A program made the translations under genes and the position numbers. A DNA stretch of 47,411 bases from Elusimicrobiota bacterium (GTDB lineage Bacteria; Elusimicrobiota; Elusimicrobia; UBA1565), in NCBI GenBank assembly GCA_043819795.1, contig JBDREN010000131.1, positions 1 through 47,411 of the forward strand, in the 5' to 3' direction. Shown piece by piece: positions 3,365-32,941 of this stretch (position 1 is the first letter of the stretch; each line of letters opens with the position of its first letter). The notes beneath the pieces are model-generated. The model ran no database searches. It was not told the DNA's origin and saw nothing but the letters and a program-made list of their open reading frames with translations.

Positions 3365-4390
3365 CTATATTGTACCAAACAGGCGCGCCAGCGGAACGAG
3401 GCTGCGCACCGTGCGCGCGTCGATGGCCCAGAGCGCCAGCAGGCTCAGCGCCCCCAGCGCCGCCGCCGCCGCGACCCGGGCCGCGGGGGCGGCCGTCTCC
3501 CACCGGGTCTCGAAGAAGTGCCAGAGGCTGGAGCACCCGAGGGCGAACGGCAGGAAGCCCAGGTACCCCAGGAGCGGCATCTCGAAGAGCTTCGGGCCCT
3601 TGGGCCAGGGCACGGTGTACTTCCACTTGGCGCCCGCCCAGAAATTCAGAGATTCCCAGAGAAGGCCGCAGATCAGTCCCGAGAGCAGCAAAGCCGAGAG
3701 GTCCCGGGCCTTGCCGGCGCTCAGCGAGGCCAGCCACGAGCGACGCGGCCGGCGGCGGGCCAGCCACGGCTCGATCATGAGGAAGGCCGGCGCCCAGACG
3801 AGTCCGAAGAAGAGCCGGGGCCAGAGCATCGGGAGGGCCAGGCAGACGACGCCGAGACAGAAAGAGGCCTTGAGCGTCACGTCGGAGACGGCGTCCGGCA
3901 CGGCGCCCCTGCCGGGGTCGACGCCGCGCCGGAGCAGGGTCGCGCAAAACGCGGCCGTCTCCAGGATGGCCGGCAGGACGGTCGCGAAAGCCAGGACGTA
4001 CCCGGGCCAGCGGATCCACAGCGGCTCCGGCAGTTCCCAATATTCCCAGTTCGCGAGGCGGAGGTTCAGGGCTTCGTAGATGAGCCAGGCCGGGACCGAG
4101 AAGAGCGCCATGCGGGCGTAGGTCCCCGGCCGGTCAGCGATCCAGGACGGGGCGCCCTCCGCGGGGCGCGCACCGGCCGCCAACGCCGAATCCGAGGGCG
4201 TCCGGCACGGCGCCCCTGCCGGGGTCGACGCCGCGCCGGCCAGCCGGCGGTTGGCTCCCCCGACGAGCATCAGGTAGGACCACCAGACGGGCAGGTAGAA
4301 GAACTGCCGGATCCATGGCGCCCCGGAGGCGAGCGCGCCGATCGACAAGGCCAGTCCGCACGCCCCGGCCGCCAGCATCATATTCGCCAT
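3365..4390 (-). CDS. Polytopic membrane protein of unknown function carrying two in-frame repeat insertions
   Basis: About 8 hydrophobic segments; motifs YEALNLRLANWEY and WESLNFWAGAKWKY...LFEMPLLGYLGF. Repeat copies at 3890-3932 and 4173-4241. Confidence 0.8.
   Translation of the reverse strand: MANMMLAAGACGLALSIGALASGAPWIRQFFYLPVWWSYLMLVGGANRRLAGAASTPAGAPCRTPSDSALAAGARPAEGAPSWIADRPGTYARMALFSVPAWLIYEALNLRLANWEYWELPEPLWIRWPGYVLAFATVLPAILETAAFCATLLRRGVDPGRGAVPDAVSDVTLKASFCLGVVCLALPMLWPRLFFGLVWAPAFLMIEPWLARRRPRRSWLASLSAGKARDLSALLLSGLICGLLWESLNFWAGAKWKYTVPWPKGPKLFEMPLLGYLGFLPFALGCSSLWHFFETRWETAAPAARVAAAAALGALSLLALWAIDARTVRSLVPLARLFGTI
3890..3932 (+). repeat. Palindromic repeat family A, copy 1 (3' part only)
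   Basis: GGCGTCCGGCACGGCGCCCCTGCCGGGGTCGACGCCGCGCCGG; read on the minus strand as RRGVDPGRGAVPDA in the host gene. Confidence 0.95.
4173..4241 (+). repeat. Palindromic repeat family A, copy 2 (full length, 69 bp)
   Basis: CCGGCCGCCAACGCCGAATCCGAGGGCGTCCGGCACGGCGCCCCTGCCGGGGTCGACGCCGCGCCGGCC; read on the minus strand as AGAASTPAGAPCRTPSDSALAAG. Confidence 0.95.
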
Positions 4391-4415
4391 GGTTTCCTCC
4401 GGACGGAGCGAGGCG

Positions 4416-5282
4416 TTACTGCTTGGACGGGGTGATGTCCTGGAACGTGGCGCCGACGCCGGCGAGGGTGCCGCGGGTGTCTTTGATGAGAAGCGTGCTG
4501 TAGCCGAGCAGGCGGGGATCGCCGTCGCGCCACCACCGTATCTCCTGGCGTTTCACCGTGTTCTTCGTGGAGAGCGTCTGGCGCAGGACCTGCGCGAGCT
4601 CGGGGATCTCGGTGAGCGCCTTCTCTATCGGCATCGTCGTGGGCTCCCCGGATATTTTCAGCATGCGGCGGGCCGCCGGGTTGCACATCATCACCCGGCC
4701 CTTGGGGTCCACGGCCACGAACCCGCCCGACAGGCTGTCGAAGATGCTGGCCTTGCGCGTCGTGACCCGGGTGGCTATGTTCTCGAGCTCGAGGCGGCGG
4801 ATCGTGTGCGAGGTCTGCTGCGCGATCGCGCGGACGAGCTTGAGGTCGTCGGGCGTGAACGCCGCCGGCCGGGGGGAGAGGTACTCGAAGACCCCGACGA
4901 AGTCGAGGCTGACGAAGAGGGGGATGGCCATCACCGAGCGCGCTTCCACGCCCGGGGCGCGGTCGACGTCCTTGTCGTATCGGGCGTCGTGCTCCGTGTC
5001 CGTGACCAGGAGCGGCTCGTGGAACTTGGCGACCCATCCGGCCAAGCCCTCGCCGATGGTGACGGGGGTGTAGTCGGGCTCCGGCGGAGCGTCTCCGAGC
5101 CGGCAGAAGGGGACGAGCTGGCGCGAGAGCGTGTCGTAGTAGAGGTAGGCGCCGGCCGGCGCGTCGAGGGCCGCGGCGGTCTTCTCGAGCAGCCGGGACC
5201 AGACCTTGATGTCGTTGGACTCCCGCATCGCGGCGAGGAACTCCAGCGCGTCGTAGAGGGTGTCGAGGGGTTCCTTCCTCAT
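4416..5282 (-). CDS. GAF + PAS domain sensor protein without an output domain
   Basis: Start MRKEPLD overlaps the upstream stop (ATGA). GAF motifs GEGLAGWVA, DARYDKDVD, RSVMAIPL and FTPDD; PAS motifs IFDSLSGGFVAVD, NPAARRML and FQDIT, followed immediately by the stop. Confidence 0.85.
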   Translation of the reverse strand: MRKEPLDTLYDALEFLAAMRESNDIKVWSRLLEKTAAALDAPAGAYLYYDTLSRQLVPFCRLGDAPPEPDYTPVTIGEGLAGWVAKFHEPLLVTDTEHDARYDKDVDRAPGVEARSVMAIPLFVSLDFVGVFEYLSPRPAAFTPDDLKLVRAIAQQTSHTIRRLELENIATRVTTRKASIFDSLSGGFVAVDPKGRVMMCNPAARRMLKISGEPTTMPIEKALTEIPELAQVLRQTLSTKNTVKRQEIRWWRDGDPRLLGYSTLLIKDTRGTLAGVGATFQDITPSKQ

Positions 5283-7258
5283 GGCTCGCTCAAGAAGCTT
5301 CCGAAGTATATGCGCCGCCGCAGCGGCTTCTTGCGCGTCCGGTCCGTGACGCGGTCGCCGGATTCCATGCCGGTCAGCGGGCGCCCGAAGCGCTCGACGA
5401 ACGTGGTGCGAAGGGTCCTGCCGGCCGATGAGCGGCTCTCCAGCAGCCCGTCGCCTCCCGTATAGAGTAGCACATGATTGACGCGTTTCGACCGTGCGGA
5501 TTCGGTGAGGAACACCGCGTCGCCGGGGAGCATCCGGCGCCGGCGCACGGGGCGGGCCTTGAGGTATTGGGCGTGGGCGTCCCGGGGGACGCTGATGCCG
5601 ACGGACCGGTAGGCCAGCTGAACGAGGCCGGAGCAGTCGAGGCCCCATCCCGGCTTCGGCTGCAGGCTCGAGCGGCCGCCCCAGACGTAGCGGTCGCCCA
5701 GAAAGAGGGCCGCCGCCTCGAGGACGTCCCGCCCGTCGGGGGGCGGGCGCGCCGCCGCGTCGAGCCGCAGCAGGGCTCCGGAATCCACGTGGGCCGTGCG
5801 GCCGTCGAGAAGGAGGACGTCCGTGCGCGCGCCGCGGTCCGTCCCGGCGAGGAGGGCCGTCCCCAGGGGGAGCGTCAGGCTCTCCTCGAGGCCCTGGGCC
5901 TCGAGCCAGCGCAGCTCGGCGCGCTTAGCCCGGATCACCGCGTTGGGGTGATAAGGGATCGGGGCGATCCGCAGGGCGTCGGCGCGCATCCAGCCGGGGT
6001 ACCCGCCCCAGGATCCCGGCTTCGGATGGTGCTGCTGTTCGACGGCAAGGACGCGGACCCAGTCGCCCTTCGCCTCCAATATCCGGACGCGCTCGCCGTA
6101 GAGGAGCTGGGAGCGCCGGGCGGGATCGGTCGCGCTGAGCCGCCGGGAAGCGCGCGGGCGCGCCCGGAGGTCGGCCGTCGGCACGCCGACCACGGCTTCC
6201 AGCGGGAATCGTTCCGAGAGCATGTAGGCGAGGCCGTTCTTGTTCTGAAGCCACGCCTTCTCGAGCTGGCTCCGCCGGTAGACGCGGCGCACCGTCTTGC
6301 GCGTCGGCGCCGCCGGATCGTTGACGATCACGTCGCCCCGAGCGGTGAATCCGGTCACGACCAGCAGGTGTCCCCGCGACCGGGGCAGGGGGGCGCCCGT
6401 CAGCTCGCCCTCCTTGAACGTGATTGAGACGACGACCGGCCGTCCGGCCGCGATCTCATCTTGAAGGGTGTTGAGCGACGGCAATCGGGCCACCTGTCCG
6501 GCGAGGCCGTAGGCCGCGGCGGCGGCGACGTTGAAGGGCCAGTTGCCGTAGATGCCGGCGCCCGTGTCCCGGACGGCTTCGGCGACCTCGAGCGTGTCCC
6601 GCTTCACGCCCCAGTATTCGAGCACCATCGCCAGCGCCGTCGGACTGCAGATGTCGCGCCGGTACTTCTTCTGCTGCTCCATCTGCGAGCGCGGAGCCAC
6701 CTTCAGCTCGCGGACCCAGGGTCCTTTCTCGAAGGGGGGCGACGGGGGGGGCGGGTGCGAGATGCTTTCGTAGGCGACGGCCACCCGCGTGAGGCGCGCC
6801 TCGCGCGCGCCCGCGGAGGTCATCCGGATGCGGTAGCGGAACGCGTCGGCCGGACGGCTGAGCTTCAGCGTGTCGACCGCGACGAAGCCGTTGGCGTCGC
6901 GCTGCCGGTCGAAGCTCTTCGGCGCGCCCGGCTCCCAGCGGGAGAGGCGGTACCACTTCGACCATTTCCCGCCCTGGCGCGCCTGGGCGTCCATCTCCAC
7001 GGAGGCCCCGCGGGGGGTATCGGCGTTCCATGACCCGACGAGGTCGTCGAAGTGGAAGGCGGTCTCGATCACGGGGGACTCGAGCGCGCCGGTGCCCTGG
7101 AGCAGGCCCTTCTCGAACGGGAGGGGCGCGAGGCCCTCGATGCGGGCCCCCTGCAGGTCGAGCGGGGAGACGTGCACGACGGTCACGCCGGCCTCCGCGC
7201 GCGGCGCGGCCTGGAGGGCCATCGCCAGCAGGAGAAAGGCGGCGCCGCGTCTGCGCAT
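5279..7258 (-). CDS. Secreted fusion: C39-like cysteine peptidase + SH3b + NlpC/P60 (C40) peptidase
   Basis: Signal MRRRGAAFLLLAMALQAAPRAEA. C39-like SQM...ICSPTALAMVL...GHLLVVTGF...VNDP. SH3b-like SQLLYGERVRIL...YPGWM. NlpC/P60 YVWGG...GLDCSGLVQ...PRDA...HVLLY. Confidence 0.85.
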   Translation of the reverse strand: MRRRGAAFLLLAMALQAAPRAEAGVTVVHVSPLDLQGARIEGLAPLPFEKGLLQGTGALESPVIETAFHFDDLVGSWNADTPRGASVEMDAQARQGGKWSKWYRLSRWEPGAPKSFDRQRDANGFVAVDTLKLSRPADAFRYRIRMTSAGAREARLTRVAVAYESISHPPPPSPPFEKGPWVRELKVAPRSQMEQQKKYRRDICSPTALAMVLEYWGVKRDTLEVAEAVRDTGAGIYGNWPFNVAAAAAYGLAGQVARLPSLNTLQDEIAAGRPVVVSITFKEGELTGAPLPRSRGHLLVVTGFTARGDVIVNDPAAPTRKTVRRVYRRSQLEKAWLQNKNGLAYMLSERFPLEAVVGVPTADLRARPRASRRLSATDPARRSQLLYGERVRILEAKGDWVRVLAVEQQHHPKPGSWGGYPGWMRADALRIAPIPYHPNAVIRAKRAELRWLEAQGLEESLTLPLGTALLAGTDRGARTDVLLLDGRTAHVDSGALLRLDAAARPPPDGRDVLEAAALFLGDRYVWGGRSSLQPKPGWGLDCSGLVQLAYRSVGISVPRDAHAQYLKARPVRRRRMLPGDAVFLTESARSKRVNHVLLYTGGDGLLESRSSAGRTLRTTFVERFGRPLTGMESGDRVTDRTRKKPLRRRIYFGSFLSEP

Positions 7259-7284
7259 GCTCTGCTCATCGTCCGTTGGACAAC

Positions 7285-7341
7285 AAGGCCGCGCGCCGCG
7301 CCGGTGGACGACCGCCCTCGGCGCTGCGCGCGGCCTTTTTT
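7285..7341. terminator. GC-rich hairpin, possible (bidirectional) terminator downstream of the ferredoxin
   Basis: AAGGCCGCGCGC (7285-7296) / GCGCGCGGCCTT (7326-7337), with a T run on + and TTGTTGT on -. Confidence 0.5.
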
Positions 7342-7359
7342 GGAAGCCGGCTCGTGCCG

Positions 7360-7674
7360 CTACTTTACGAGCGCGTTGTCCGGCTTCTTGGGCGCTTCGT
7401 TCGGCGGCCGCGGCGTGACTTTCGGATTGTCCTTGAACGTCGGCGCGAGCTCCGCGTTGACCTTCGCCCAGTCGGGAGATTCGTCCACGGACCCCACGAT
7501 GCCGCCGATGGGGCATTCAGGCAAGCAGACTCCGCAGTCGATGCACACCTCGGGGTCGATGACCATGAAGTTCTCGCCTTTGTACTCGCCGGGATGGATG
7601 CAGTCCACGGGGCAGACATCTACGCACGCCGCGTAGACCTCGCCCAAGCACTTATCAATGATGACGTGTGGCAT
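7360..7674 (-). CDS. Dicluster ferredoxin (7Fe, FdxA-like)
   Basis: CLGEVYAACVDVCPVDCIH and DPEVCIDCGVCLPECP cysteine motifs; RBS-like GGAAGGG upstream. Confidence 0.93.
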   Translation of the reverse strand: MPHVIIDKCLGEVYAACVDVCPVDCIHPGEYKGENFMVIDPEVCIDCGVCLPECPIGGIVGSVDESPDWAKVNAELAPTFKDNPKVTPRPPNEAPKKPDNALVK

Positions 7675-7873
7675 GGTCCCTTCCTTCTCCCTGTTCTATG
7701 TATTAGCCGAATTTACATGGAATCTTTAAACTGCTAGACTCGCGGCCAAACGGCTGAAGTCATGCTCGATTCCGGAGAGGATTCTAACTCATTTCCAAAT
7801 CGGTGTCAACGCGGCCCGGGGCGGGGCTCGGTTCCGTTCCGGGGCGGCGCGCTTTCCTTAAAGGCCGGCGGGA

Positions 7874-9327
7874 ATGACGCGACGTATCCCTTGGCCGTGG
7901 CTGCGCTGTGCCTGCTGCTCTGGCCGGCCGTTCCGGCCGCCAACGCCGCACCGGAGGGCGTCCGGCACGGCGCCCCTGCCGGGGTCGACGCCGCACCGGT
8001 CTGGGCCGCGGAGGGCGGGCCGGGGAATCCGGAAGGGCCTTCCCGTTTCTCGGGATGGCGCTTGGACGGCAGCATGTCGCTCAACTGGCGCAACGTGGGC
8101 CCGCGGGAGCCCGGGTTCGAGACCCAGATCCAGAACGAGGTCTATCTCGCCGACATGTACTTCGGGGTCCGCGGCCCGGTCCTAGACGGGGTCCCGTTTC
8201 TAATGGAGTTCAACATGCCGACCGGCGGCCAGGGGCAGCTGAGCCTGTATCGCTTCCTTTTCCACTACGACCGCCTCCCGAGCTGGGCCTTCTGGGGCGG
8301 CAAGTTCCTCGTCCCCTTCGGGCGCCACAACGAGCTTTACCGCCCGGACATGTTCCTGACGGTGACGCGACCCCTGCTCTACGCCTCGCCCGACAGCCTC
8401 GACCTCGTCGTGCGCATCAATTCCCCGCGCCCGCCGTTCTCCTCGGGCTACACCGACATCGGCGCCCGGGTCACCTATTATCCTCCGGAGCACAGGTGGT
8501 TCATCCCCAGCGAGGCGACCTTATTCGTGGTCAACGGCCTAAGCGAGAGCTCGAATCGCCAGAGGACGTTCCCCACGCCCGAGAATCTCGGCATCCCTCC
8601 TCCTCCGCCGAACGGGGTGTCGATCGACTTCGGGCACGAGAACAACAACCTCGCCGACAATAACAACAATAAGGTGCCGGGAGGGCGCGTCGTCTTCGCG
8701 CTCGGGGACCTGGACCTGCCGTGGCCGATCCCCGAGGGGCAGCGGGACCTCAACGGTCTCTTGCTCGGCGTGTCGGCGATGGGCGGCCAGTATGAGCTGG
8801 AGGCCGTGCTGAACTACATGATGATCGGAGTGGACCTCGGGTTCGAGTATCAGGGCGTCAATGTCACGGCGGAGTACATGCACAGCTTCACGCATTTCAA
8901 GTCGCCGCTCGAAGCCGCCCCCTCGAGCACCACGCTTCTCACGCCGACCATCTTCGTCCGCGATTATGAGGAGATTCAGGGATTCTTCATCCAGGGTTCC
9001 TTTCCGCTCATTAGGGCTCCCCGCTGGGGCAGGCGCGTAACGGGCGTCGTGGTCTACAACCGGGCGTACCGGCGCGGCCCCCTGCTGGACCTGCTCCTGA
9101 ACCAGACCGTCAACGGGGAGTTCTTCGAGTCGATCGCCGCCTATAATCCGGTCGCGCCGCGCATCGAGCGGCGCGTCACGAAGTATACGGCGGGCCTGAA
9201 CTGGCAGCTGAGCGACCACTTCATCCTCAAGGGCGAATATTCGTATTGGGCGATGGGGGCTTCCTCCACGATCACCGGGACGAGGGATATCTATCAGGGC
9301 GCCTTCTCGGTCGTCATGGGATTCTGA
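7874..9327 (+). CDS. Outer-membrane beta-barrel (porin-like) protein; start uncertain (ATG 7874 with a one-base frameshift, or TTG 7891)
   Basis: Hydrophobic signal LAVAALCLLLWPAVPAA; GKFLVPFG, DNNNNK and alternating beta-strand patterns; C-terminal Phe (VVMGF). Confidence 0.75.
7933..7999 (+). repeat. Palindromic repeat family A, copy 3
   Basis: Encodes PAANAAPEGVRHGAPAGVDAAP in-frame at the signal-peptide/mature-protein junction. Confidence 0.95.
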
Positions 9328-9339
9328 GGATGAAGTCTT

Positions 9340-9381
9340 GGCGTTTCCCGGAAATCCCCAGAGGGATTTACGGGAAACGCC
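9340..9381. other. Intergenic 19-bp-stem hairpin
   Basis: GGCGTTTCCCG-G-AAATCCC CAGA GGGATTT-A-CGGGAAACGCC between two co-directional genes; no U-tract. Confidence 0.7.
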
Positions 9382-9410
9382 GCTCTGCTCACGACAACGC
9401 GGCTGACCCG

Positions 9411-10388
9411 ATGCGGAAGAGCGTCCTGAAATGGAGCCTGGGGCTCGTGTTGGTCCTGGCCGCGCCGGCCGCCAACGCCGGACCGGAAGGCGTCCGGCAC
9501 GGCGCCCCCGCCGGAGACGGCCTTGATTTTCCTTCCGAGATCCGTCTCAAAGCTGAGACCGATCGCTACAGTCACTTCGAAGTGAGCTTCCCCTCCGCGC
9601 GGAAGAGCCCGTTTCCGGTCAACGACACGGTTTGGGGGCATCTCTACCTGCCGCGGATCCCGCCCTGGGTCTCCCCGCCCGATGGCGGGCGGGGGCTTCC
9701 CCCGTGCGTGCTGGTTCTCCCGGTCATGGCTGCGCCCAACGTCTGGATCGAGATGCGCTTCGTGCACGCCTTCCTGCGTCGCGGGCTCGCCGTGATGTGG
9801 ATCGAGATGCCCTACCAGTTCCACCGGCGGCCGCACCCATCCATCCCGAGCGGGCAAGTCTTCCTCGCCCGGACGGCGCGGCGTCTGGGAGAAAACTTCC
9901 GGCAGTCGATCGCGGACGCGCGCCGTTCGATCAGCTGGCTGCGGGGCTCCGGGCTCGTGGACGGCGGGCGCATCGGGCTCTTCGGCATCAGCCTCGGGGC
10001 GGCCGTCGGCGCGGCGGCGTACTCCGTGGACAGCCGCCCGCGCGGAGCCGTCTTCGCTCTGGGGGGGGCGGACTTCCCTGACCTGGTGTTCCGCAGCTCC
10101 ATGACGGGCCCCTTCCTCAAGAAGAGCGGCATCCGGGAGGAGGAGTTGCGCGAGGCCTGGCGCGGGATCGATCCCATGGAGTACCGGGAGGAGAACCGCG
10201 GCAAACCGGTGGTCCTCGTCAACGCCCGCGGCGACAGCGTGGTCCCGCCCGAGAACGCGCGGCGCTTGAAGGAGGCCTTCCCCGACGCGCGCCAGCTCTG
10301 GGTGCCCTGGGGCCACTACAGCGCGCTGCTCCACTTGACGTGGATGCCTTCCTACGCCGCCCGCCAGTTCAGCCGGCTGCTGCGTTAG
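9411..10388 (+). CDS. Secreted alpha/beta-hydrolase
   Basis: Signal MRKSVLKWSLGLVLVLAAPAA; nucleophile elbow GISLG; Asp in NARGDSVVP; His in WGHY. Confidence 0.85.
   Translation: MRKSVLKWSLGLVLVLAAPAANAGPEGVRHGAPAGDGLDFPSEIRLKAETDRYSHFEVSFPSARKSPFPVNDTVWGHLYLPRIPPWVSPPDGGRGLPPCVLVLPVMAAPNVWIEMRFVHAFLRRGLAVMWIEMPYQFHRRPHPSIPSGQVFLARTARRLGENFRQSIADARRSISWLRGSGLVDGGRIGLFGISLGAAVGAAAYSVDSRPRGAVFALGGADFPDLVFRSSMTGPFLKKSGIREEELREAWRGIDPMEYREENRGKPVVLVNARGDSVVPPENARRLKEAFPDARQLWVPWGHYSALLHLTWMPSYAARQFSRLLR
9465..9514 (+). repeat. Palindromic repeat family A, copy 4 (3'-truncated)
   Basis: Encodes PAANAGPEGVRHGAPAG in-frame right after the hydrophobic signal core. Confidence 0.9.
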
Positions 10389-10407
10389 CCCGGATTCCCC
10401 GGCTCCC

Positions 10408-11343
10408 CTATTTTTTCAGGTATTTCTGGAGCAGAGCGGGGTCCATCCCCTCGGGGATCTGCGGTTGCCGGGAGTCCTTCGAGGATTCTTCGCGGTCCGA
10501 TGAGGAGCCGAAGCCCGAGAACCCCTTCGTCGGCTTCAGCTTCGGCTTCGCGCGAAGGGTCCTCTTCCTCCGGGTCCGGCGATCCGCCTTCTTGGGCGCC
10601 GAAGGATCGACTCCGGCGTATCGCAGCAGCTCGTCCGGGAGTCCCGAGCCCCGCCCGTAGAGCCGGACCATCTTAACGACGTTGGGGTCGCTTCCGTTCT
10701 CGAAGAACAGCTGCTCGAGCTTGGGGCCGTTCGTTTCGTCCCCGAGGAGCTTCTTGTTCACCGCGCGCAACGCGGGCGTATTCTTCCGCTTTCTCAGCAT
10801 GTCGTGGAAGGCGCTCGATTTGTTCAGCAGACGGAGGAAGGCCTTGAAGTCCTTGTCGCCGTCGTAGCGGTCCGCGATCGCCTTCAGGTTCCTGTCGCCG
10901 AGGAACTCGTTGTACCAGCGCGGCTGCATCTCGTGGACGGTGTCGACGACTTTCTGCATGAGGACGCGGATCGCGGCGTTGGTCAGCCGCTCGGGGACGC
11001 TTTGGACGTCCTGCTTGAGCTGCTGCACGAGCGACTTCGCGTCGCCGGACTCCGCGGCCTTTCTGGCCTCGGCCGAGGAATCCCCCCCGGTCGAGCTGCC
11101 GGCGAAGGACGCGCTCTTCTGGACGAAGGTCAAAGACGACTGCTGCTGCGACGGGGCCTGCGGCGCGTGGGCCGCAGGCGCGGCTTTCGTCTGGAAGGTG
11201 GGAGGCGCGGACGCCGCGACCGGCGATCCGCCTTCGGGCTTGCCTGCGCCGGACGGCTTGAGCCCCACGAACAGGACCCCCAGCGCGCCGAGGGTCATCA
11301 GCCCGAAAAGGACGAGAAGAATCGCGGTCGATTTATTGTCCAT
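10408..11343 (-). CDS. Single-pass membrane-anchored hypothetical protein (paralog of the neighbour)
   Basis: N-terminal TM, low-complexity linker, helical domain EFLGDRNLKAIADRYDGDKD...; sigma70-like promoter immediately upstream. Confidence 0.8.
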   Translation of the reverse strand: MDNKSTAILLVLFGLMTLGALGVLFVGLKPSGAGKPEGGSPVAASAPPTFQTKAAPAAHAPQAPSQQQSSLTFVQKSASFAGSSTGGDSSAEARKAAESGDAKSLVQQLKQDVQSVPERLTNAAIRVLMQKVVDTVHEMQPRWYNEFLGDRNLKAIADRYDGDKDFKAFLRLLNKSSAFHDMLRKRKNTPALRAVNKKLLGDETNGPKLEQLFFENGSDPNVVKMVRLYGRGSGLPDELLRYAGVDPSAPKKADRRTRRKRTLRAKPKLKPTKGFSGFGSSSDREESSKDSRQPQIPEGMDPALLQKYLKK

Positions 11344-11350
11344 TCACCCC

Positions 11351-11379: not shown

Positions 11380-11392
11380 TGACCCCTACGAC

Positions 11393-15065: not shown

Positions 15066-15318
15066 AGGTCGACTCGTCGCGCTTCATCGCTCTGTGTCGC
15101 GTCCCTCCGCCGCCCGGCGGACCGGTAGTCCGCCAGGGGGGCGTCGGATCCCCTCGCTCCGGAGAGGATAGAACGCTTTCGACGGAGCCTCCGCTCGGCC
15201 GCTCTCCAAGGGGGGCTCCGCCCCCCGTTTCATCGGCGCTCGCCTTTCGCCCTTCGGGCGACGGCTCGCTGAACCCCCCGAAGAGGAAGCGATGAGGGTC
15301 GATTCGTCGCGCTTCATC
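15062..15318 (+). repeat. 27-bp direct repeat (15062-15088 / 15292-15318) flanking a structured insert (230-bp period)
   Basis: ATGAAGGTCGACTCGTCGCGCTTCATC vs ATGAGGGTCGATTCGTCGCGCTTCATC (25/27). Interior hairpins at 15106-15148, CGGAGCC...GGCTCCG and TCGCCC-TTC-GGGCGA. Confidence 0.85.
15095..15134 (+). repeat. Repeat family B, copy 1
   Basis: TGTCGCGTCCCTCCGCCGCCCGGCGGACCGGTAGTCCGCC; 35/40 identical to 32947-32986. Confidence 0.85.
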
Positions 15319-15974: not shown

Positions 15975-16364
15975 TCACTCCTCCGCGGTGACGGTGTAGC
16001 CGTTCTCTCTCAGAAGAACGACGTACTCATCGAAATCCTTGGAGCGCTCCAGCAACTCGCGCAGCCGGTTCTCTTCGCCGGGGACAAAGGCCTGGGCAGT
16101 CAGAAAAGGATGGCTTGGGGACTTGGCGCCGGGAGGCGGCAAGGCCGTGCTCAGCAGGCGCCCGGGTTCGTCCTTCATCCAAAGGACGCGAGTCCCCTGT
16201 CTATCGAAGACGTTCCAGCCTTTCTTCTCGTGCATCGTCTCTCCGCTGGCACCGGATGCATCGGCGGACTTCGCTGGTTTTGCGGGCGGGCGTGAACACC
16301 CGGCGCATGCCAGTAGGCACAATGCCGCGAGGCACGCCGCAATGGGATGAGTCCGGGCGCTCAT
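15975..16364 (-). CDS. Small lipoprotein
   Basis: Lipobox-like LLACAGC after a hydrophobic core; ATGA overlap with the upstream peptidase. Confidence 0.75.
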   Translation of the reverse strand: MSARTHPIAACLAALCLLACAGCSRPPAKPAKSADASGASGETMHEKKGWNVFDRQGTRVLWMKDEPGRLLSTALPPPGAKSPSHPFLTAQAFVPGEENRLRELLERSKDFDEYVVLLRENGYTVTAEE

Positions 16365-17824
16365 TTGCCGGCCGCTTTGGGCGGCCCGTACACCGCGTAC
16401 AAAAACTTGGCCATCTTCGGATGTTTCTCATGGAGCAAGGCCGGAGAAGTGTCGGCTCCCGTGTCGCTGGTGTAACCGGTGCTGAAATAGGCGCCCGTCG
16501 ATTCGGCGAAGTACTCCATATCGTTGGCATCGGCGTACCAGCCGAGCCCTGTCTTCGTCTCGGTGGCCATGGCCTCGCGATAGAGCTCCTTCGATCTGGG
16601 CAGTGAGCACGGTTCCCTTTGCTCGGCGTATGCGATCTTCGCCCCGGTCCAGGCCGTGATCCAATCCGGCCGGGTCAAGGGATGACTGCCCAGTCCCGCC
16701 CGGAATGCGCGGGCCGCGCTGACCGTGCGCGACAAAGGGCCGGGCTGTTCTATGGATTCCGGGGGCTCCTTCGGCAGGCCATGGAGTTGGACCGCGTGGC
16801 CGAACTCATGGACAAGCGTGTGAAGCGCCGGATATCCCTTTGAGTCGAGTCCGGTCGTCAACACAAGGTTCTCTTCTCCGACCGCGATCGCCGAGCCGTT
16901 CGGGAGGGGGGTGTCGCCGATCCCCCGGACTTCGTCCCACCGGCGTCCGTCGAAGGTCCGCTCCCCTTTGAGATAGGCGAAGGGGGGGAGGTCCACCAGC
17001 TTCTTGTCTTTCGGGATGATGTAGATATGAACCCCCGCGTCGATAAGGTTCTTCAAGACTTCGGGGTCGGCGTCCCGCAGCATGAGGCCGACCACCTCTT
17101 CCCCGTTCGCGACCGCGTCCCCGGAAACCCCATCCGCGACGATGCGTGACTGGATGAGTCGCACCCGCGCCTTCCGGCCGGCCGGTACGTCGGGCTTGAC
17201 GCCGGGCACCTTTTTGACGCGTAGATGTCCGGCGGGCTGGAGCGGAAGGTCCGGGTCGTCCGCGGGCCGAAGCCTGGATAACGCTCTCCTGACGCCGGAC
17301 GGTGATGAAATGCCTCCGGTCGTGGAACCAGCACGTTCCCCGTAAATGGCGCCTATGTCCCTGTTCTGTAGTTGCTTCCGGAAGCTGGCATCGATGGTCG
17401 CGATCAAGGCCGCGGAATTCTTCATCCCCCGTCGCTGATCGGGAACACCGGCTCGGTCTTTGCCGGAGGAGGGGCTGAGGGGCTTGGGGATCCGCGCTTT
17501 CCCCGGATTGCCTTCCGAACACAGGGCAGCCACCTTGTCGGCCGGCAAGAGGCCCGCCCTGATGGCGCGTGAGGATCCCTCAACGCACGCGGCGATGAAG
17601 CGATTGCGCGCCTCTTCCAGAGCTTCGGCGGGGCTCTTATGCTTCTCGCAGAGCGCGGCCCAGGAGCTGCGGGAAACGCTCCAGATATCCAAATATCCCG
17701 GGACTTGGTAGGCCTGGAGGCAACCGGAGTCGCGCGGCGGGGCCGGCTCGCCGGCGAGGCACGGGCTCCCAGCCGCGAAGACAAAGCAAAACAGGGCGCA
17801 CCACAACCTTGAGAGAGGGGACAA
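16361..17824 (-). CDS. Secreted zinc metallopeptidase with an ATLF/Pro-Pro endopeptidase-like C-terminal domain
   Basis: AGGAGG RBS + TTG; signal peptide; Cys-rich N-terminal domain; GRRWDEVRGIG, LVHEFGHAV (HExxH) and EYFAES (third zinc ligand). Confidence 0.8.
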   Translation of the reverse strand: MSPLSRLWCALFCFVFAAGSPCLAGEPAPPRDSGCLQAYQVPGYLDIWSVSRSSWAALCEKHKSPAEALEEARNRFIAACVEGSSRAIRAGLLPADKVAALCSEGNPGKARIPKPLSPSSGKDRAGVPDQRRGMKNSAALIATIDASFRKQLQNRDIGAIYGERAGSTTGGISSPSGVRRALSRLRPADDPDLPLQPAGHLRVKKVPGVKPDVPAGRKARVRLIQSRIVADGVSGDAVANGEEVVGLMLRDADPEVLKNLIDAGVHIYIIPKDKKLVDLPPFAYLKGERTFDGRRWDEVRGIGDTPLPNGSAIAVGEENLVLTTGLDSKGYPALHTLVHEFGHAVQLHGLPKEPPESIEQPGPLSRTVSAARAFRAGLGSHPLTRPDWITAWTGAKIAYAEQREPCSLPRSKELYREAMATETKTGLGWYADANDMEYFAESTGAYFSTGYTSDTGADTSPALLHEKHPKMAKFLYAVYGPPKAAGK

Positions 17825-20376: not shown

Positions 20377-20446
20377 CCGGCCGCCAAACGCCCGACCGGA
20401 GGTCGCCCGGCACGGCGCCCCTGCCGGGGTCGACGCCGCGCCGGCC
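20377..20446 (+). repeat. Palindromic repeat family A, copy 5 (70 bp, intergenic)
   Basis: CCGGCCGCCAAACGCCCGACCGGAGGTCGCCCGGCACGGCGCCCCTGCCGGGGTCGACGCCGCGCCGGCC; one extra A relative to the coding copies. Confidence 0.93.
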
Positions 20447-23730: not shown

Positions 23731-23732
23731 GC

Positions 23733-26755: not shown

Positions 26756-27364
26756 ATGAGACGCATGAACAAGCTGGACGTCATCGGCATTCTGCAGGAG
26801 CACGGGGCGATCCTCGAGGGGCATTTCCGGCTTCCATCGGGGCTGCACAGCCCGATCTACATTCAGCCGGCCGTCGTGCTGCAGTATCCCCATCTGGCGC
26901 ATAAGATCGCGCAGGCCCTGAGCAAGAAGTTTTCCGAGGCCGTGGACGTGGTGGTCTCGCCGGCGATGGGCGGGGTCGTCATCGGGCAGGAGGTGGCGCG
27001 CGTGCGCCGCTGCCGTTCGATCTTCTTCGAGCGGACGGCCGGGGGTCCGGCCATGGGCCTGCGGCGCAACTTCCGGCTCAAATCCGGCGAGCGCGTGCTG
27101 GTCGTGGAGGACGTCCTCATGGCCGGCCGCACGACCAGCGAACTCGTCACTCTGGCGGCCGCCTACGGCGCGAAGGTCGTGGGTGTCGCGGCGATCGTGG
27201 ACCGCTCGATGGGCCCCCTCTCCCTCCCGGTGCCCGCGCGAGCGCTCGTCTCCTTCCCGATCCCGGTGGTCGCTCCGGACGACTGCGAGCTCTGCGCGCG
27301 GCGCCTGCCGGTGACCCTGCCGGAAGAGGGGGGGGCGCCTGCGGCGATAGCCGGCGAGTCATGA
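26756..27364 (+). CDS. pyrE: Orotate phosphoribosyltransferase
   Basis: GAILEGHFRLPSGLHSPIY, SPAMGG, PRPP-binding VLVVEDV and IVDRS. Confidence 0.9.
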   Translation: MRRMNKLDVIGILQEHGAILEGHFRLPSGLHSPIYIQPAVVLQYPHLAHKIAQALSKKFSEAVDVVVSPAMGGVVIGQEVARVRRCRSIFFERTAGGPAMGLRRNFRLKSGERVLVVEDVLMAGRTTSELVTLAAAYGAKVVGVAAIVDRSMGPLSLPVPARALVSFPIPVVAPDDCELCARRLPVTLPEEGGAPAAIAGES

Positions 27365-28674
27365 TCCAGCGGTACACGCGCCCGGAGATGGCGCGCATCT
27401 GGGACCCGGAGACGCGCATCCGGCGCATGCTCGAGGTGGAGCTCGCTTGGATCGAGGCGATCGCCCGGCCCAAGGGCATCCCCGCCGCGCAGGTCGCGGC
27501 GTTCCGGCGTCTGGCTGGGCGCGGGCGCTTTTCGGCCAAGGTCAGGCGGAAGGAGGCCAAGAGCGCCCACGACGTGGTGGCGCTGCTCGAGGTGGTCTCG
27601 GCCGCGCTGCGCCGCGGGTCTCCCGAGGTGGTCCGCTACCTCCACTACGGCCTGACCTCCTCCGACGTCCTCGATACCGTTCTGGCGCTTCAGCTGCGCG
27701 ACGCGGCCGATCTGCTGCTCGCCGGCTGGAGGGCCGTGACCATCCGGATCAAGGCGCTGGCGCGCCGGCACGCGGCGACGTGGATGGCGGGCCGGACTCA
27801 CGGCGTCCACGCCGAGCCGATGGCGTTCGGCCTGAAGCTGGCCGGCTGGCACGCCGAGGCGCGGCGCGACGCGGCCCGCCTCCAGGAGGCTCGGCGGCAT
27901 ATCGCCTACGGCAAGCTCTCGGGCGCCGTGGGGAGCTTCGCCCACGCCTCCCCCGCCCTCGAGGCGGCGGTCCTCAGAAAGCTCGGTCTGAGGCCGGAGC
28001 CGGTCTCCACTCAGGTCGTGCCGCGCGACCGGCACGCGGCCTATCTCCAGGCGGTGGCGCTCTCGGCGTGCGCGATCGAGCGCTTCGCCGTCGAGATCCG
28101 TCACCTGCAGCGCACCGAGGTCCTGGAGGTATCCGAGCCCTTCGGGCGCGGGCAGAAGGGCTCGTCGGCCATGCCGCACAAGCGCAACCCGGTCCTTTGC
28201 GAGAACCTCTGCGGCCTCGCGCGCCTGGTCCGGGCCCATTCGTCCGCGGCCCTGGAGAACGTGGCGTTGTGGCACGAGCGCGACATCAGCCATTCCTCCG
28301 TTGAGCGCGTCGCGCTACCCGACGCGACGGTCCTTCTGGATTTCATGCTCCACCGCTTCGCCGGAGTGCTCCGGGGTCTCGTGATCGACCCCGCGCGCAT
28401 GCGCAAGAACCTGGAGAGCTCGCTGGGCCTGGCATTCAGCCAGGGGGTGCTCCTGGCGCTCATCGACAAGGGTTTGGGCCGCATGGAGGCCTACGACGTC
28501 GTCCAGCGCGCGGCGATGGAGACCTGGCGCGGCTGGCGGCCGCTGCGCGACACGCTCGCCGCCGATCCCGAGGTCCGGCGCCGCCTTCCGGGGGCCGAAC
28601 TGGAGCGCTGCTTCGACCTGGCGCGCTACGGCCGCGCGACGCGGCGGATACTCGAGCGCGAAGGCATCCTGTGA
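27361..28674 (+). CDS. purB: Adenylosuccinate lyase
   Basis: MIQRYTRPEM, HYGLTSSDVLDT, GRTHGVHAEP, GSSAMPHKRNP and LWHERDISHSS. Confidence 0.97.
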   Translation: MIQRYTRPEMARIWDPETRIRRMLEVELAWIEAIARPKGIPAAQVAAFRRLAGRGRFSAKVRRKEAKSAHDVVALLEVVSAALRRGSPEVVRYLHYGLTSSDVLDTVLALQLRDAADLLLAGWRAVTIRIKALARRHAATWMAGRTHGVHAEPMAFGLKLAGWHAEARRDAARLQEARRHIAYGKLSGAVGSFAHASPALEAAVLRKLGLRPEPVSTQVVPRDRHAAYLQAVALSACAIERFAVEIRHLQRTEVLEVSEPFGRGQKGSSAMPHKRNPVLCENLCGLARLVRAHSSAALENVALWHERDISHSSVERVALPDATVLLDFMLHRFAGVLRGLVIDPARMRKNLESSLGLAFSQGVLLALIDKGLGRMEAYDVVQRAAMETWRGWRPLRDTLAADPEVRRRLPGAELERCFDLARYGRATRRILEREGIL

Positions 28675-29462
28675 GCGGGGTGATCGCCCTTTTGACGGAC
28701 TTCGGGCACAAAGACCCGTTCGCGGGGATCATGAAGGGCGTGATCCTCGCTCGCTGCCCCTGGGCGCGGGTCGTCGATCTCTGCCACGGCGTCCCGCCGC
28801 AGGATGTCCGCGCGGGAGCTCTGCGGCTGATGGCCGCCGTCCCCTATTTCCCGAAGGGGACCCTCTTCGTCTGCGTCGTGGACCCCGGGGTCGGTTCGGA
28901 ACGCGCGATCCTCTGGGCCCGCGGCGCGCGCGGGCAGTTCCTGGCGCCCGACAACGGGCTGCTGAGCTGGGCGTCCCGCGTCGAGCCGCTGCGGGAGGTG
29001 CGCCGCGTCGCGAACGCCCGCCTTTTTCTTGATGAGGTCAGCCGGACGTTTCACGGCCGGGACATCTTCGCCCCGGTCGCCGCGGCGCTCGCGTGCGGCG
29101 TGCCGCCGAGCGAGCTCGGCCCGCGGCGCAGGAAGCTCGTGCGCCTGCCGTTTCCGGAGGCGCGACGCCGGGGAGGAAGAGTGCGGGGGGAGGTGATCGC
29201 GTTCGACGGATTCGGCAACGCGGTCACGAACCTGCGGCCCGCGGACCTGCGGCCGAACGTCTCGCTGGAGGCCTGCGGCCTGGCCCTGGGACCGCTCCGG
29301 AGGGCGTACGCGTCGGTCCCGTCGGGCGGACCGCTGGCGCTCGTGGGGTCCTACGGTTTTGTCGAGCTTTCCGTGCGCGATGGGAACTTCGCCGCGAAGT
29401 ACCGCGTACAAGTGGGGGAGCCGGTTTTTGCCCTGCGGCGCTCTTCCGTCGCGAACCCATGA
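28671..29462 (+). CDS. SAM hydrolase / chlorinase-fluorinase family (DUF62)
   Basis: IALLTDFG, VVDPGVGS, APDNGLL, TFHGRDIFAPVAA and DGFGNAVTN. Confidence 0.93.
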   Translation: MSGVIALLTDFGHKDPFAGIMKGVILARCPWARVVDLCHGVPPQDVRAGALRLMAAVPYFPKGTLFVCVVDPGVGSERAILWARGARGQFLAPDNGLLSWASRVEPLREVRRVANARLFLDEVSRTFHGRDIFAPVAAALACGVPPSELGPRRRKLVRLPFPEARRRGGRVRGEVIAFDGFGNAVTNLRPADLRPNVSLEACGLALGPLRRAYASVPSGGPLALVGSYGFVELSVRDGNFAAKYRVQVGEPVFALRRSSVANP

Positions 29463-29474
29463 AGGGGAGGAACG

Positions 29475-30671
29475 ATGACCACTAAGACGGACGCGATCTC
29501 GCTGACGCTCAAGCCCGGGGAGGAGGACCGCCTGCTGCGGGGCCACCGGTGGGTGTTCTCCAACGAACTGCAGGAGGTCCCGAAGACGGCCGAGCCGGGG
29601 ACGCTGGCGGTCCTGCATACTTCCCGCGGGAAGGCTCTGGGGATGGGATTCTTCAACCCGGGCAGCCTGATCGCGTTCCGGCTCTTGGCGCGCGCGGCCG
29701 TCTCGGTCGACGCGGGCTTCTTCCGGGACCGCTTCCAGGCCTGCCTCGACATGCGCCGGCGCCACCTGGGGGAAGTGGAGTCGTTCCGCCTGGCGTTCGG
29801 AGAGTCCGACGGGCTGCCGGGGCTGATCGTGGACAAGTACGGGGACGTGCTCGTGGTCCAGGTCCTGGCCGCCGGCATGCAGAGGCGGCTCGAGGACATC
29901 CAGACGGCCCTGGTCGATACGGTCTGCGCGAAGGGCGTCTACCTGAAGAACGACCATCCCGTGCGCGCCCTCGAGGGGCTGGACTCCGAGCGTCGGACGC
30001 TCTGGGGGGAGGTCCCGGAAAAGGTGCTGATCGAGGAGGCGGGGCTGAAGTACCACGTGGCCCCGGCGGGCCAGCACAAGACCGGGTTCTATTTCGATCA
30101 TCGCGACAACCGGACAGCGCTTGTGCCCTACGTCAAGGATCGCGTCGTGCTCGACCTCTATTGCTACACGGGGGCCTTCTCGCTGCGCGCGGCGAGAGGC
30201 GGGGCGGCCCGCGCGTTCGGGCTCGACAGCTCCGAGAACGCCGTGGAGCTCGCGAAGGAGAACGCCGGCCTCAACGGGCTTCAGGATGCGTGCCAATTCG
30301 AGTGCGGGGACGCCGAGCAGGTGCTGGCGGATTTCTCCGACACCCGGCGGCGGCTGCGGCCGGATATCGTGGTCCTGGACCCCCCGAGCCTGGTCACCGC
30401 GAAGAAGCACCTGCCGAAGGCCCTTCGGGCCTATGCGCGCCTCAACGCGAACGCCTTCCGGTGCCTGCCCCATGGTGGGCTTGTGGCGACGAGCGCGTGC
30501 TCTCACCACGTGTCGCGCGAAAGCTTCCTGAAGATGCTTCGGGAAGCGGCGGGCAAGGCGCAGAAGACGGTGCGGGTGATGGAGGTCCGCGGCCAGGCCA
30601 AGGACCATCCGTTCCTCTTGAGCATGCCCGAAACCGAGTACCTGCACTTCGCGCTCCTGGAAGTTCTTTGA
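29475..30671 (+). CDS. rlmI: RlmI-type 23S rRNA m5C methyltransferase (PUA + class I SAM domain)
   Basis: GHRWVFSNE, ESDGLPGLIVDKY, GQHKTGFYFDHRDNR, VLDLYCYTGAFS, VLDPP and SACS. Confidence 0.85.
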   Translation: MTTKTDAISLTLKPGEEDRLLRGHRWVFSNELQEVPKTAEPGTLAVLHTSRGKALGMGFFNPGSLIAFRLLARAAVSVDAGFFRDRFQACLDMRRRHLGEVESFRLAFGESDGLPGLIVDKYGDVLVVQVLAAGMQRRLEDIQTALVDTVCAKGVYLKNDHPVRALEGLDSERRTLWGEVPEKVLIEEAGLKYHVAPAGQHKTGFYFDHRDNRTALVPYVKDRVVLDLYCYTGAFSLRAARGGAARAFGLDSSENAVELAKENAGLNGLQDACQFECGDAEQVLADFSDTRRRLRPDIVVLDPPSLVTAKKHLPKALRAYARLNANAFRCLPHGGLVATSACSHHVSRESFLKMLREAAGKAQKTVRVMEVRGQAKDHPFLLSMPETEYLHFALLEVL

Positions 30672-30676
30672 GCCTC

Positions 30677-32941
30677 ATGGACGAGGAGGCGCTCGCGCCC
30701 GGGCTCGGCTGGGAGCCCGAGACCCGCGAGGTCGCGTCCTTACGGAGCTTCCTCGAGCGCGAGCACCAGGCCCACCAGCAGGGCCGGGAGGCGCAATACG
30801 ACCGGCCGGTCGACGATCGGACGGCGTCCGGGTCGGCGATAGACCGGGTGTTCTACACCGGCGTCGAGGAGGGAAAGCAGAGGCTCTTCGTATTCTCCTG
30901 CCGCCGCAACGATTCGCGCTTCCGGCCCGGGACGCGCGTGCGCGTCAGCCGGGGCGATGCCCGCCAGCCCCTCGCGATCCTTGAGCTCGTAGACGACCGC
31001 TACGACGGCAAGAAGTACGTCCTGCGTCTCTCGGGACAGGTGTCCAAGCCGGAGGCCTTCGAGAGCGCCGAGCCGTGGGTGCTCGACGAGGACGTCTTCG
31101 ACCTGCTCGACGTGCAGCTGTCCATCCTGCGCGAGGCCGAGCAAAGCGGCTTCGCCGACTGGCTGGCCGGGTCCGAACCGGCGCCGGCCCCCAACGCCGC
31201 ACCGGAGGGCGTCCGGCACGGCGCCCCTGCCGGGGTCGACGCCGCGCCGGCCGGGGCGTCGTCCTATGAGGAAAACGGCTGCGCGTCCCGGTTCGCGGAG
31301 GGCCTGGAAGGCAGCATACGGGAGGCTTTCGAAAGGGCCTGCCGCGCGCCCCGCTGGTTCGCCGTCCAGGGCCCGCCGGGATCGGGCAAGACGCATCTCC
31401 TGGCGCGGCTCGCGCTTCACTTCGCGCTCGAGCGCGGGCGGCGCGTCCTCATCACCGCCGTCTCGCATCAGGCGATCCACCACGCGCTGGCGGAGACCTA
31501 CTGGGTGGGCGGTCGGATGGCCGAGAGCGACGCATCCATGCGGGAGCTCCTCGACGACGGATTCTTTAAGCTGGGCGCTTCGCGGGGAAACAACGAGGGG
31601 CTGCCGGCCGGTGTGCACGCGGCCATGCGGGTCCCGTACGGGAAGCGGCCCCTGATCGCGGGCGCGACGGTGTACGCGGGCATGAACATGCTCGCGGCCT
31701 CGGGCGGACGCGTTCCGATCCCGACGGTTTCCCCCGAGGCGGCGGGAAGCCGGTCCGGGGCGGTCCTTAAAGGCCTGTTCGACGTCGTCCTCTTCGACGA
31801 GTCCGGCCAGGCGCCTTTGGTGCTGGCGCTCGGGGCCAGGCTCCTGGCCCCGAGCGTAGTCTTCATCGGCGACGACGCGCAGCTTCCCCCGGTCGTGCAG
31901 CTTCCCCCGGATGAGGAGTGCGACCCGCTCGCGCGCGTTTCGACGATCGAGTTCGTCCGCCGGCGCTACGGGGATCCGCTCATGCTCACCGAGACGCGGC
32001 GTCTCAACCGCGAGCTCTGCTCCATCGTGAGCGATTGCTTCTACGACGCCGCGCTCGCGCCCACTCCCGAGGCCGAGTCCCGGGCGTTGCGCCTGACGCT
32101 GCCGCCCGCTGAGCCGTTCGCCGAGGTCTTCCGTCCGGACCGCAGCCTCGTGTTCCTGGACGTGCCGCACTCGGACTGCCGCGCCCTCTCGGAGCCGGAG
32201 GCCCGCTGGGCCGTGGCCATCGTGAGGGAGGCGGTCCGCTGCGGGATCCCCTCCGAGGAGATCGGGGTGATCGCCCCGTACCGCGCGCAGTGCAACCGCA
32301 TCCGGTTCCTGCTCGGCAGGCGGGGGGGGACGAACGCCGCGACGGTGGAGCGCTTCCAGGGCCAGGAGCGCGAGATGGTCGTGATCTCGCTGACGAGCTC
32401 GAACCGGCGCTACCTCGCGCGCCTCGCCGCCTTCCTCTTCAATCCGAACCGCCTCAACGTCGCGGTCAGCCGCGCGCGCACCAAGGTCGTCCTGCTGGGC
32501 TCCCGCAAGGCCTTGACCGAGGCCGCCGAGTCCGCCGGCGAGGCCATGTCGGACTCCGCTGCCTCGGCCGGCTTCCAGGTCTTTCTCACGCTTCTGGAGA
32601 ACGCCCATCACGTGGACGGGACGGACCTTCCGGAAGCGGTCCCCATGCCCTCGGACGCGTCTCTCGTCCGGGACGGCGCGCCCGGGGAGCCTTCAACGCG
32701 TGCGTCTCGCGTCCGTCCCCCGGCGGCGCGGCGCCGCTCGACGGATCTGCCGGCCGCGGAGGTCTTCGAGCCCGGTGAGGTGGTCGTGCACGGGACCTAC
32801 GGGGCCGGCCGCGTGCTCTCCAAGTCCGTCCAGCTCATCGACAACCGGCGCGAGTGGGTCAACGAGGTCCGCTTCAACGACGGCGCCGTGCGCCTCGTCA
32901 TCCCGCGCCTCAGCCGTCCGGCCATGCGAAAGGCCGAATGA
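30677..32941 (+). CDS. SF1B (Upf1/Dna2/NAM7-like) helicase with a C-terminal Tudor-like domain
   Basis: QGPPGSGKT, FDESGQ, IGDDAQLPP, IGVIAPYRAQ, TVERFQGQE and RLNVAVSRAR; C-terminal FEPGEVVVHGTYGAGRV. Confidence 0.88.
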   Translation: MDEEALAPGLGWEPETREVASLRSFLEREHQAHQQGREAQYDRPVDDRTASGSAIDRVFYTGVEEGKQRLFVFSCRRNDSRFRPGTRVRVSRGDARQPLAILELVDDRYDGKKYVLRLSGQVSKPEAFESAEPWVLDEDVFDLLDVQLSILREAEQSGFADWLAGSEPAPAPNAAPEGVRHGAPAGVDAAPAGASSYEENGCASRFAEGLEGSIREAFERACRAPRWFAVQGPPGSGKTHLLARLALHFALERGRRVLITAVSHQAIHHALAETYWVGGRMAESDASMRELLDDGFFKLGASRGNNEGLPAGVHAAMRVPYGKRPLIAGATVYAGMNMLAASGGRVPIPTVSPEAAGSRSGAVLKGLFDVVLFDESGQAPLVLALGARLLAPSVVFIGDDAQLPPVVQLPPDEECDPLARVSTIEFVRRRYGDPLMLTETRRLNRELCSIVSDCFYDAALAPTPEAESRALRLTLPPAEPFAEVFRPDRSLVFLDVPHSDCRALSEPEARWAVAIVREAVRCGIPSEEIGVIAPYRAQCNRIRFLLGRRGGTNAATVERFQGQEREMVVISLTSSNRRYLARLAAFLFNPNRLNVAVSRARTKVVLLGSRKALTEAAESAGEAMSDSAASAGFQVFLTLLENAHHVDGTDLPEAVPMPSDASLVRDGAPGEPSTRASRVRPPAARRRSTDLPAAEVFEPGEVVVHGTYGAGRVLSKSVQLIDNRREWVNEVRFNDGAVRLVIPRLSRPAMRKAE
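31184..31252 (+). repeat. Palindromic repeat family A, copy 6 (full length)
   Basis: Encodes PAPNAAPEGVRHGAPAGVDAAPA in-frame in the linker before Walker A. Confidence 0.95.

Follow-up and report, generated by a model that had tools for sequence, protein, structure and literature searches.

We analysed a stretch of 47,411 nucleotides (the window: contig C131, JBDREN010000131.1) from a draft assembly (GCA_043819795.1; 4.99 Mb, 66.8% GC, 241 contigs) of an Elusimicrobiota bacterium, in which an earlier note, made from the sequence alone, had described six copies of a short repeat, most of them lying inside unrelated proteins. A repeat finder groups the same six copies, at the positions that had been claimed, as one family, referred to here as family A, all on the plus strand and 66–100% alike over 74 nt. 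The copies and the genes that host them are as follows.

3890..3933, plus strand: 5'-truncated copy with the second hairpin only, antisense in the membrane-protein gene, reading RRGVDPGRGAVPDAV; net gain of 2 to 4 residues
4169..4241, plus strand: full copy, antisense in the same membrane-protein gene, reading AGAASTPAGAPCRTPSDSALAAG; net gain of 28 to 32 residues against 9/9 homologues
7933..7999, plus strand: full copy, sense, in the gene of a probable outer-membrane protein, immediately behind its hydrophobic signal-like segment
9459..9514, plus strand: 3'-truncated copy, sense, right after the signal-like segment of an alpha/beta-hydrolase
20377..20446, plus strand: intergenic copy with one extra base, between gcvH (end 20372) and a lipoate-ligase-like gene (start 20514)
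31181..31253, plus strand: full copy in sense orientation, within the linker preceding the P-loop of a superfamily-1 helicase, with a net gain of 25 to 28 residues
3365..4390, minus strand: host gene of the first two copies, a hydrophobic protein of no known family (gene call, scans)
7762..9327, plus strand: host open reading frame, conserved probable outer-membrane protein (start uncertain, no family match)
9411..10388, plus strand: host gene, alpha/beta-hydrolase (gene call, scans)
30677..32941, plus strand: host gene of a superfamily-1 helicase (AAA_11/AAA_12), truly starting at 30677 and not at 29549

Five of the copies fall within the open frames of four genes, three different frames being used to read them, as the earlier note had it, and GVRHGAPAGVDAAP is a stretch of peptide that repeat copies encode. 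The names 'OM barrel' and 'membrane protein' that it gave to two of the hosts are suggestions only, neither protein having a Pfam or NCBIfam family match. Genes were called with a self-trained hexamer model, by which copies near N-termini are undercounted; among 43 core-anchored loci of the family, 29 are genic and 14 lie outside called genes. The extra base reported for the intergenic copy is present (position 20386), but it has little bearing on the argument about frame, because it is absent from an approximately 96%-identical strain and because those 14 loci are likewise outside genes.

The repeat unit had been taken to be 69 bp long; its actual length is 63 nt, as seen in the period of all five family-A tandem arrays and in the gain of exactly 21 residues in MoaA (see below). 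Full-length singletons match over 67–80 nt and carry a core of approximately 10 nt, CCGCRCC[G/T]GC, at both ends, with an imperfect terminal redundancy of 4–17 nt, and the apparent 69 nt arise because one unit is followed by part of this redundancy. The ends are direct repeats of the core rather than terminal inverted repeats, and many copies are shortened at variable points. Arrays of related subfamilies have periods of 60, 57 and, once, 62 nt; overall, 12 of the 13 array periods are multiples of three, the arrays of one subfamily not being independent of each other.

Comparison of the host proteins with their homologues revealed the size of the insertions. Where the helicase has 57 residues, 14/14 homologues (returned as loci; 25 genomes had a match) have 29–32, which corresponds to a gain of 25–28; at its full copy the membrane protein has 55 residues versus 23–27 in 9/9 homologues, a gain of 28–32. 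MoaA, encoded outside the window, has 47 residues versus 26 in 8/8 homologues (three weaker loci being left out of the comparison), so that the gain of 21 equals exactly one unit, and a solved MoaA structure also lacks the inserted stretch. Insertion is confirmed in these three proteins. At 3890 the partial copy adds only 2–4 residues relative to 8/9 homologues and therefore replaced host codons of a loop. RibF, with 68 residues, is compared with 31–34 in 10/11 homologues; the eleventh, from another genus (L151, genome G005), has 17 extra residues there, seemingly a decayed copy, and the insertion at this site may predate the split of the genera or may have recurred. In the outer-membrane protein and the hydrolase the region is too variable among 14 homologues each for the gain to be sized. 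The list of 35 hosts, which also includes neighbours of intergenic copies, contains proteins as unrelated as RibF, RbfA, MoaA, a MutY-like protein, YbeY, the linker of an E2 acyltransferase, two sigma-54 activators, a U32 peptidase and archease. As judged from these alignments, the repeat lands in working genes apparently without breaking them and adds what is predicted to be a floppy loop of 21 residues.

The family is numerous in the source genome: BLASTN gave 68 matches on 28 contigs, an nhmmer profile built from 32 long matches (cut-off E<0.01) gave 64 hits, merging to 52 loci, versus none in the reversed genome used as control, and 65 matches came from a covariance model. The expectation that the genome would contain many further copies was thus correct, and with it the core of the earlier note, namely a dispersed repeat that stands in frame in unrelated conserved proteins and is absent from their orthologues. 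Elsewhere the covariance model found 2–4 matches in 4 of 16 other genomes of the same family and, under stricter filters, a single weak match in 1 of 150 genomes of the phylum, while BLASTN of relatives yielded 1–5 matches in 9 of 40; relatives carry their copies in other genes. The exact 29-nt core pattern occurs at one locus across all GTDB species genomes, in an Elusimicrobia record (L068), the same copy being present in a genome of the same family, and at one locus in a scan of metagenomes. Phage and viral collections gave no match in either case and a plasmid collection only one weak match of 45 nt, and Rfam covariance models gave none at gathering score over the window and none at E<=1 over a 501-nt array region. 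Since 65 matches here stand against few in the genomes of the family and the phylum, the expansion is specific to the source lineage, on top of an older and sparse superfamily.

The repeat had been described as palindromic and as folding through GGCGTC/GACGCC plus CGGCA/TGCCG, and neither statement held. Minimum free energy z-scores of three copies on both strands (+0.27 to -1.39) are near zero, i.e. the whole unit folds no better than its shuffles and a whole-unit palindrome was rejected; the proposed fold, placed on 48 aligned copies, has 1 cell with a two-sided change versus 0.4 in shuffles and so lacks covariation. A fold with two hairpins, in contrast, shows 28 two-sided changes on 48 copies versus 6.3 in shuffles, with 0/500 shuffles as high (kinship inflates this control) and 91% of cells paired. 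The first hairpin closes a variable loop, and the second is a stem-bulge-stem capped by TGCC, whose inner stem shows 13 two-sided changes versus 4.4 in 20 diverged relatives, a comparison in which kinship again inflates the control and in which ten of the relatives had been found with a model rewarding that inner stem. In a 51-nt tandem relative (L115–L117, genome G002) the first hairpin is perfect, and the second shows compensatory changes. At the foot of the second hairpin stands GCAC or a closely similar tetranucleotide (GTAC or GGAC in relatives), and the consensus has GCAC also before the first one; an upstream CGTC is not conserved, its T pairing or persisting in only 20 of 48 rows. Two GCAC-footed hairpins are hence kept by compensatory changes.

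Only 29 of the 52 loci are inside called genes, as compared with 84% of random positions (p=1e-6); the family is depleted from genes, yet far more genic than the MITE-like families of this genome (MITEs being miniature transposable elements with inverted repeats), which are almost wholly intergenic. The six frames are used 17/7/3/1/1/0 times by the 29 genic copies, 17 being read in the PEGVRHGAPAGVDAA frame and 7 in the antisense STPAGAPCRTPS frame; 24/29 use these two Ala/Pro/Gly frames and 20/29 are in sense orientation. The skew exceeds what the phase of target sites leads one to expect (Monte Carlo p<5e-5), a bias from target phase having been rejected for three target definitions, and therefore the peptide decides which insertions survive. 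The view that the conserved unit is 'nucleotide, not peptide' is right in that DNA is what gets copied, and wrong in so far as frame use is strongly skewed. Openness in all six frames, which had been presented as a special property of the repeat, is none: 41% of composition-matched shuffles are likewise stop-free in six frames, and in 10/29 full copies one strand has a stop triplet.

Copies are clustered and point the same way. Within 30 kb there are 64 pairs of loci, where 8.1 are expected and the maximum in 2000 simulations was 23, and 61/64 share orientation; same-contig copies differ at 7.1 sites versus 9.5 between contigs (permutation p=0.004), and all 14 pairs lying in oppositely running host genes are co-oriented. 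In a comparison among repeats of the genome, 45/45 pairs of family A were co-oriented versus 6/18 of a MITE and 5/12 and 30/45 of two other intergenic families, whereas two other genic families behaved like family A (26/26 and 49/59).

The latter two families are worth describing in their own right. The 45-nt in-frame family (C83, C182, C218, C36, C41 and others) comprises 49 loci and, like family A, has a length that is a multiple of three, is mostly genic (35/49) and is locally co-oriented (49/59 pairs), but it differs in sequence and hairpin and clustered separately; a first attempt at it had retrieved a protein-domain repeat instead. A GT-C gene on C83 contains, near 30770–30860, a partial 45-nt copy with a family-A copy immediately after it. 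The 51/54-nt hairpin family (nine loci on C30, others on C190, C138 and C171) is half genic, has 26/26 co-oriented local pairs and 18/20 loci on one skew strand, and it also constitutes the 54-nt module of the MITE.

Polarity relative to replication looks strong when each locus is counted, with 42/52 loci and 7/7 antisense genic loci on the skew-positive strand, but fails with contigs as the unit (11/17, p=0.33) and in 20 new loci of the superfamily (9/20; 8/16 at |z|>=2). The gene dnaA was located at C138 43502–44854 with a DnaA-box cluster just downstream, and third-position GC skew keeps its sign there. Because of the contig counts, the new loci and the absence of a flip at dnaA, absolute polarity is not supported. 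Clustering around oriC was also rejected, as the host protein on C155, despite its DnaA domain, is not the initiator, and dnaA lies on C138.

Filled and empty sites can be compared in the MITE, one copy of which opens the window.

1..219, plus strand: copy of an approximately 170-bp MITE (repeat finder), the core of which takes 54- and 60-nt hairpin modules

This element, with a core that looks ERIC-like, is present at about 50 loci genome-wide and has terminal inverted repeats and modules at fixed positions. The core measures 56–58 nt in 26 copies; five copies exceed this by 54 nt and two by 60 nt. The 60-nt module is related to the 63-nt repeat and sits at one position with <=2 nt of overlap; a third site filled by it, in a related element, has a 7-nt repeat, so that redundancy is 0–2 nt in two of the three filled sites and 7 nt in one. 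Conversely, the MITE was found inserted into the loop of one family-A copy (C37). As for empty sites in host genes, the MoaA homologue L165 encodes AGAD there with codons matching the end core, and the RibF homologues L152 and L157 possess GACGC where the copy ends. Contigs from the study of the approximately 96%-identical strain show 63-nt tandem joints; among these fragmentary contigs, no joint skips a unit.

With moderate confidence in it as a whole, we favour the reading that family A is a selfish, non-autonomous 63-nt repeat, lineage-specific, dispersed and recently amplified in one lineage, which spreads by short-range copying in cis and is then sorted by selection on host proteins. Of its parts, the selfish in-frame nature of the repeat is highly probable, and for a cis route guided by homology we see the chances as evenly balanced. 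The reading builds on the observed unit length, in-frame gain, hairpins, one-way clusters, head-to-tail arrays, ragged ends, gene depletion and frame bias. A single-stranded copy of the unit would be laid into a nearby site that already resembles the approximately 10-nt end core, where annealing or template switching would add one unit and leave an imperfect direct repeat. If pairing took place at other short homologies, truncated copies or replaced host codons would result, and events between repeats would give arrays. As the unit length of 63 nt is divisible by three, insertions would survive in loops, linkers, tails and signal-peptide junctions, mostly in the two Ala/Pro/Gly-rich frames, and the peptide is most likely a tolerated passenger with a neutral role.

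Several points weigh against this reading. The decayed insert in L151 suggests that some copies are old. That the hairpins are conserved and their GCAC foot is fixed suggests that a protein recognises them, which a route free of enzymes leaves unexplained, and the 60- and 54-nt relatives in the MITE, mostly with 0–2 nt of redundancy, are a better fit to precise enzymatic insertion. No empty allele was seen within the species, so that the putative junctions are read from genomes 50–70% identical, and the 14 co-oriented pairs in opposite genes come from two contigs only.

The main rival, which we regard as possible though doubtful, is a REP-like element (repetitive extragenic palindrome) with GCAC as guide tetranucleotide, moved by single-stranded cut-and-paste, with a Y1 HUH nuclease of RAYT/TIRYT type as the enzyme in trans. 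Copies do show REP architecture, with a tetranucleotide 5' of a hairpin-bulge-hairpin (PMC6006769), and the genome contains five long Y1 open frames (C72, C96, C140, C198 and C102; L070–L075), the nearest copy being 1.1 kb from a Y1 gene. However, none of the six Y1 loci examined is flanked by the 63-nt repeat; the flanking repeats present are unrelated inverted repeats, at least three of the open frames being bracketed by their own, and these also form dispersed families of 15–30 loci. One scanned Y1 protein has DnaA-like C-terminal matches, which together with the terminal inverted repeats (TIRs) would fit subclass 2.1/TIRYT, a subclass for which no REPs were found (PMC6006769). The 9-nt end of a Y1 TIR occurs exactly in the 60-nt subfamily (0.13% of shuffles), whereas in family A the likeness is at chance level (7–8% of shuffles); it is a lead, not a result. 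The strand preference per locus, antisense genic copies included, would speak for such a nuclease as well, as IS200/IS605 elements follow the lagging-strand template (PMC5027513), but it fails per contig and in the new loci, and the skew call itself is weak. Inverted dimers, too, were not seen. A search for a nearby transposase found IS91-family genes in the genome, none with an adjoining family-A copy, and a linked transposase was accordingly rejected. As a separate observation, C91 (L174), a contig of 3.3 kb, carries an integron-integrase-like gene (a label given by inspection only) followed by an IS91-family Y2 transposase.

Much less likely is an RNA copy moved in trans by a reverse transcriptase of group II intron type. 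Covariation with G-U-compatible changes, three long reverse transcriptase open frames in the genome, the many 5'-truncated copies and the excess of sense copies are in line with it; none of the nhmmer hits is on a contig with a reverse transcriptase locus, the repeat has no Rfam match, and clusters of one orientation across oppositely transcribed genes are left unexplained. We give slightly less weight still to the proposal that host function keeps the repeat, whether in the peptide as a linker, in the mRNA as a hairpin or in the DNA as a polar site for a protein of the chromosome. The strong frame bias, conserved hairpin, local polarity and two copies at signal-peptide junctions would suit it, but orthologues lack the repeat at every tested site bar the one decayed case, copies are depleted from genes, often truncated and spread over both strands and five frames, and sister genera are nearly devoid of them. 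An artefact of assembly or binning, thinkable in a draft of 241 contigs with several contigs ending in a copy, is very improbable, as copies are diverged yet frame-keeping, relatives of the repeat exist in other genomes, and copies occupy the same positions in the approximately 96%-identical strain, which comes from a different study and whose contigs bridge the left junctions of those at 3890 and 20377 (one sequencing run, X1, was set aside as possibly not independent).

Beside these elements the window holds further features: an open reading frame at 16361–17824 (minus strand) matches the Pfam ATLF domain family below cut-off (24.2 vs 27.4 bits) and its product probably has a metallopeptidase-like fold, the shorter called gene there having no NCBIfam match; a gene at 35781–39908 (minus strand), with three internal repeats of 972 bp, encodes a protein of 1375 residues that has thrombospondin type 3 repeats; an intergenic inverted repeat with 35-nt arms, 89% complementary, lies between divergent genes at 44472–44552; and copies of two further dispersed intergenic repeat families occupy 15092–15202 and 47133–47411.

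Among described repeats, the Rickettsia palindromic elements (RPEs), to which the earlier note had likened the repeat, resemble it in behaviour: they occur between genes as well as in frame within conserved proteins of unrelated kinds, are probably near-neutral and have an unknown mobiliser (PMC10969869, PMC2229807, PMC3733652), and the RPE insert in R. conorii gmk is translated in a protein that works (PMC2229807). In anatomy, as judged from their description, the likeness fails: RPEs are stem-loops 105–146 bp long with terminal inverted repeats (PMC2229807), while the 63-nt unit of family A has redundant ends in direct orientation and two short hairpins, and its copies form head-to-tail arrays and cluster locally in one direction. 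With GTAG- and CGTC-tagged REPs (PMC3733652, PMC6006769, PMC3116915) it shares a tetranucleotide at the 5' foot of a GC-rich bulged hairpin, some intragenic copies and Y1 genes in the genome. It is unlike them in its tag (GCAC, with GTAC or GGAC in relatives, not GT[AG]G or CGTC), in its head-to-tail copies, such dimers being rare and inverted dimers predominant in REPs, in its share of genic loci (29/52; REPs are mostly extragenic) and, as compared with REP-RAYT systems (REPtrons), in having no cognate Y1 gene flanked by the repeat. BREs are likewise GC-rich, with full and partial copies, tandem arrays, some copies in coding sequence and no alignment with replication, but they are about 90 bp long and mostly intergenic (PMC3110155); three short motifs of the 63-nt repeat gave no match in the BRE supplement, where the listed sequences look unrelated (PMC3110155). 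Terminal inverted repeats, which define the MITE, are absent from family A. The family works like the coding repeats of RPE and BRE type but is anatomically neither an RPE nor a MITE, nor is it a GTAG or CGTC REP. Small dispersed repeats of Nostoc and mycobacterial MIRUs are tiny families that share structure over sequence and are nested, tandem and often frame-preserving; both belong to different phyla, and those of Nostoc are reportedly 21–27 nt long. In the open-licence literature no description of the family or of such repeats in Elusimicrobiota was found, although a similar repeat could be listed in supplements of REP surveys. Rickettsia is where such a phenomenon is known from; the repeat family and its local mode of spreading appear to be undescribed.

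We put forward, tentatively and as the less probable case, that GCAC-tagged hairpins of an Elusimicrobiota order form an undescribed superfamily, in which family A has expanded the most and which would represent a third REP-like class beside GTAG and CGTC. In such a superfamily structure rather than sequence would be kept, units would be multiples of three (51, 57, 60 and 63 nt), and an orientation-preserving, short-range spread in cis, unlike described transposition, would seed Ala/Pro/Gly linkers in neighbouring genes, proceeding from one region of the chromosome to the next. How coding repeats such as RPEs move has been an open question since 2000, and although the host organism is uncultured and direct tests are limited accordingly, its genome gives unusually direct clues: the gain of exactly one unit in MoaA, a target that resembled the end of the element beforehand, empty and filled sites in a multicopy MITE, and a local spread in one direction that can be measured and that the MITE lacks. 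The family shows selection acting on the reading frame and length of a mobile element, and the lineage-specific loops that it brings into housekeeping enzymes will mislead annotation and alignment.

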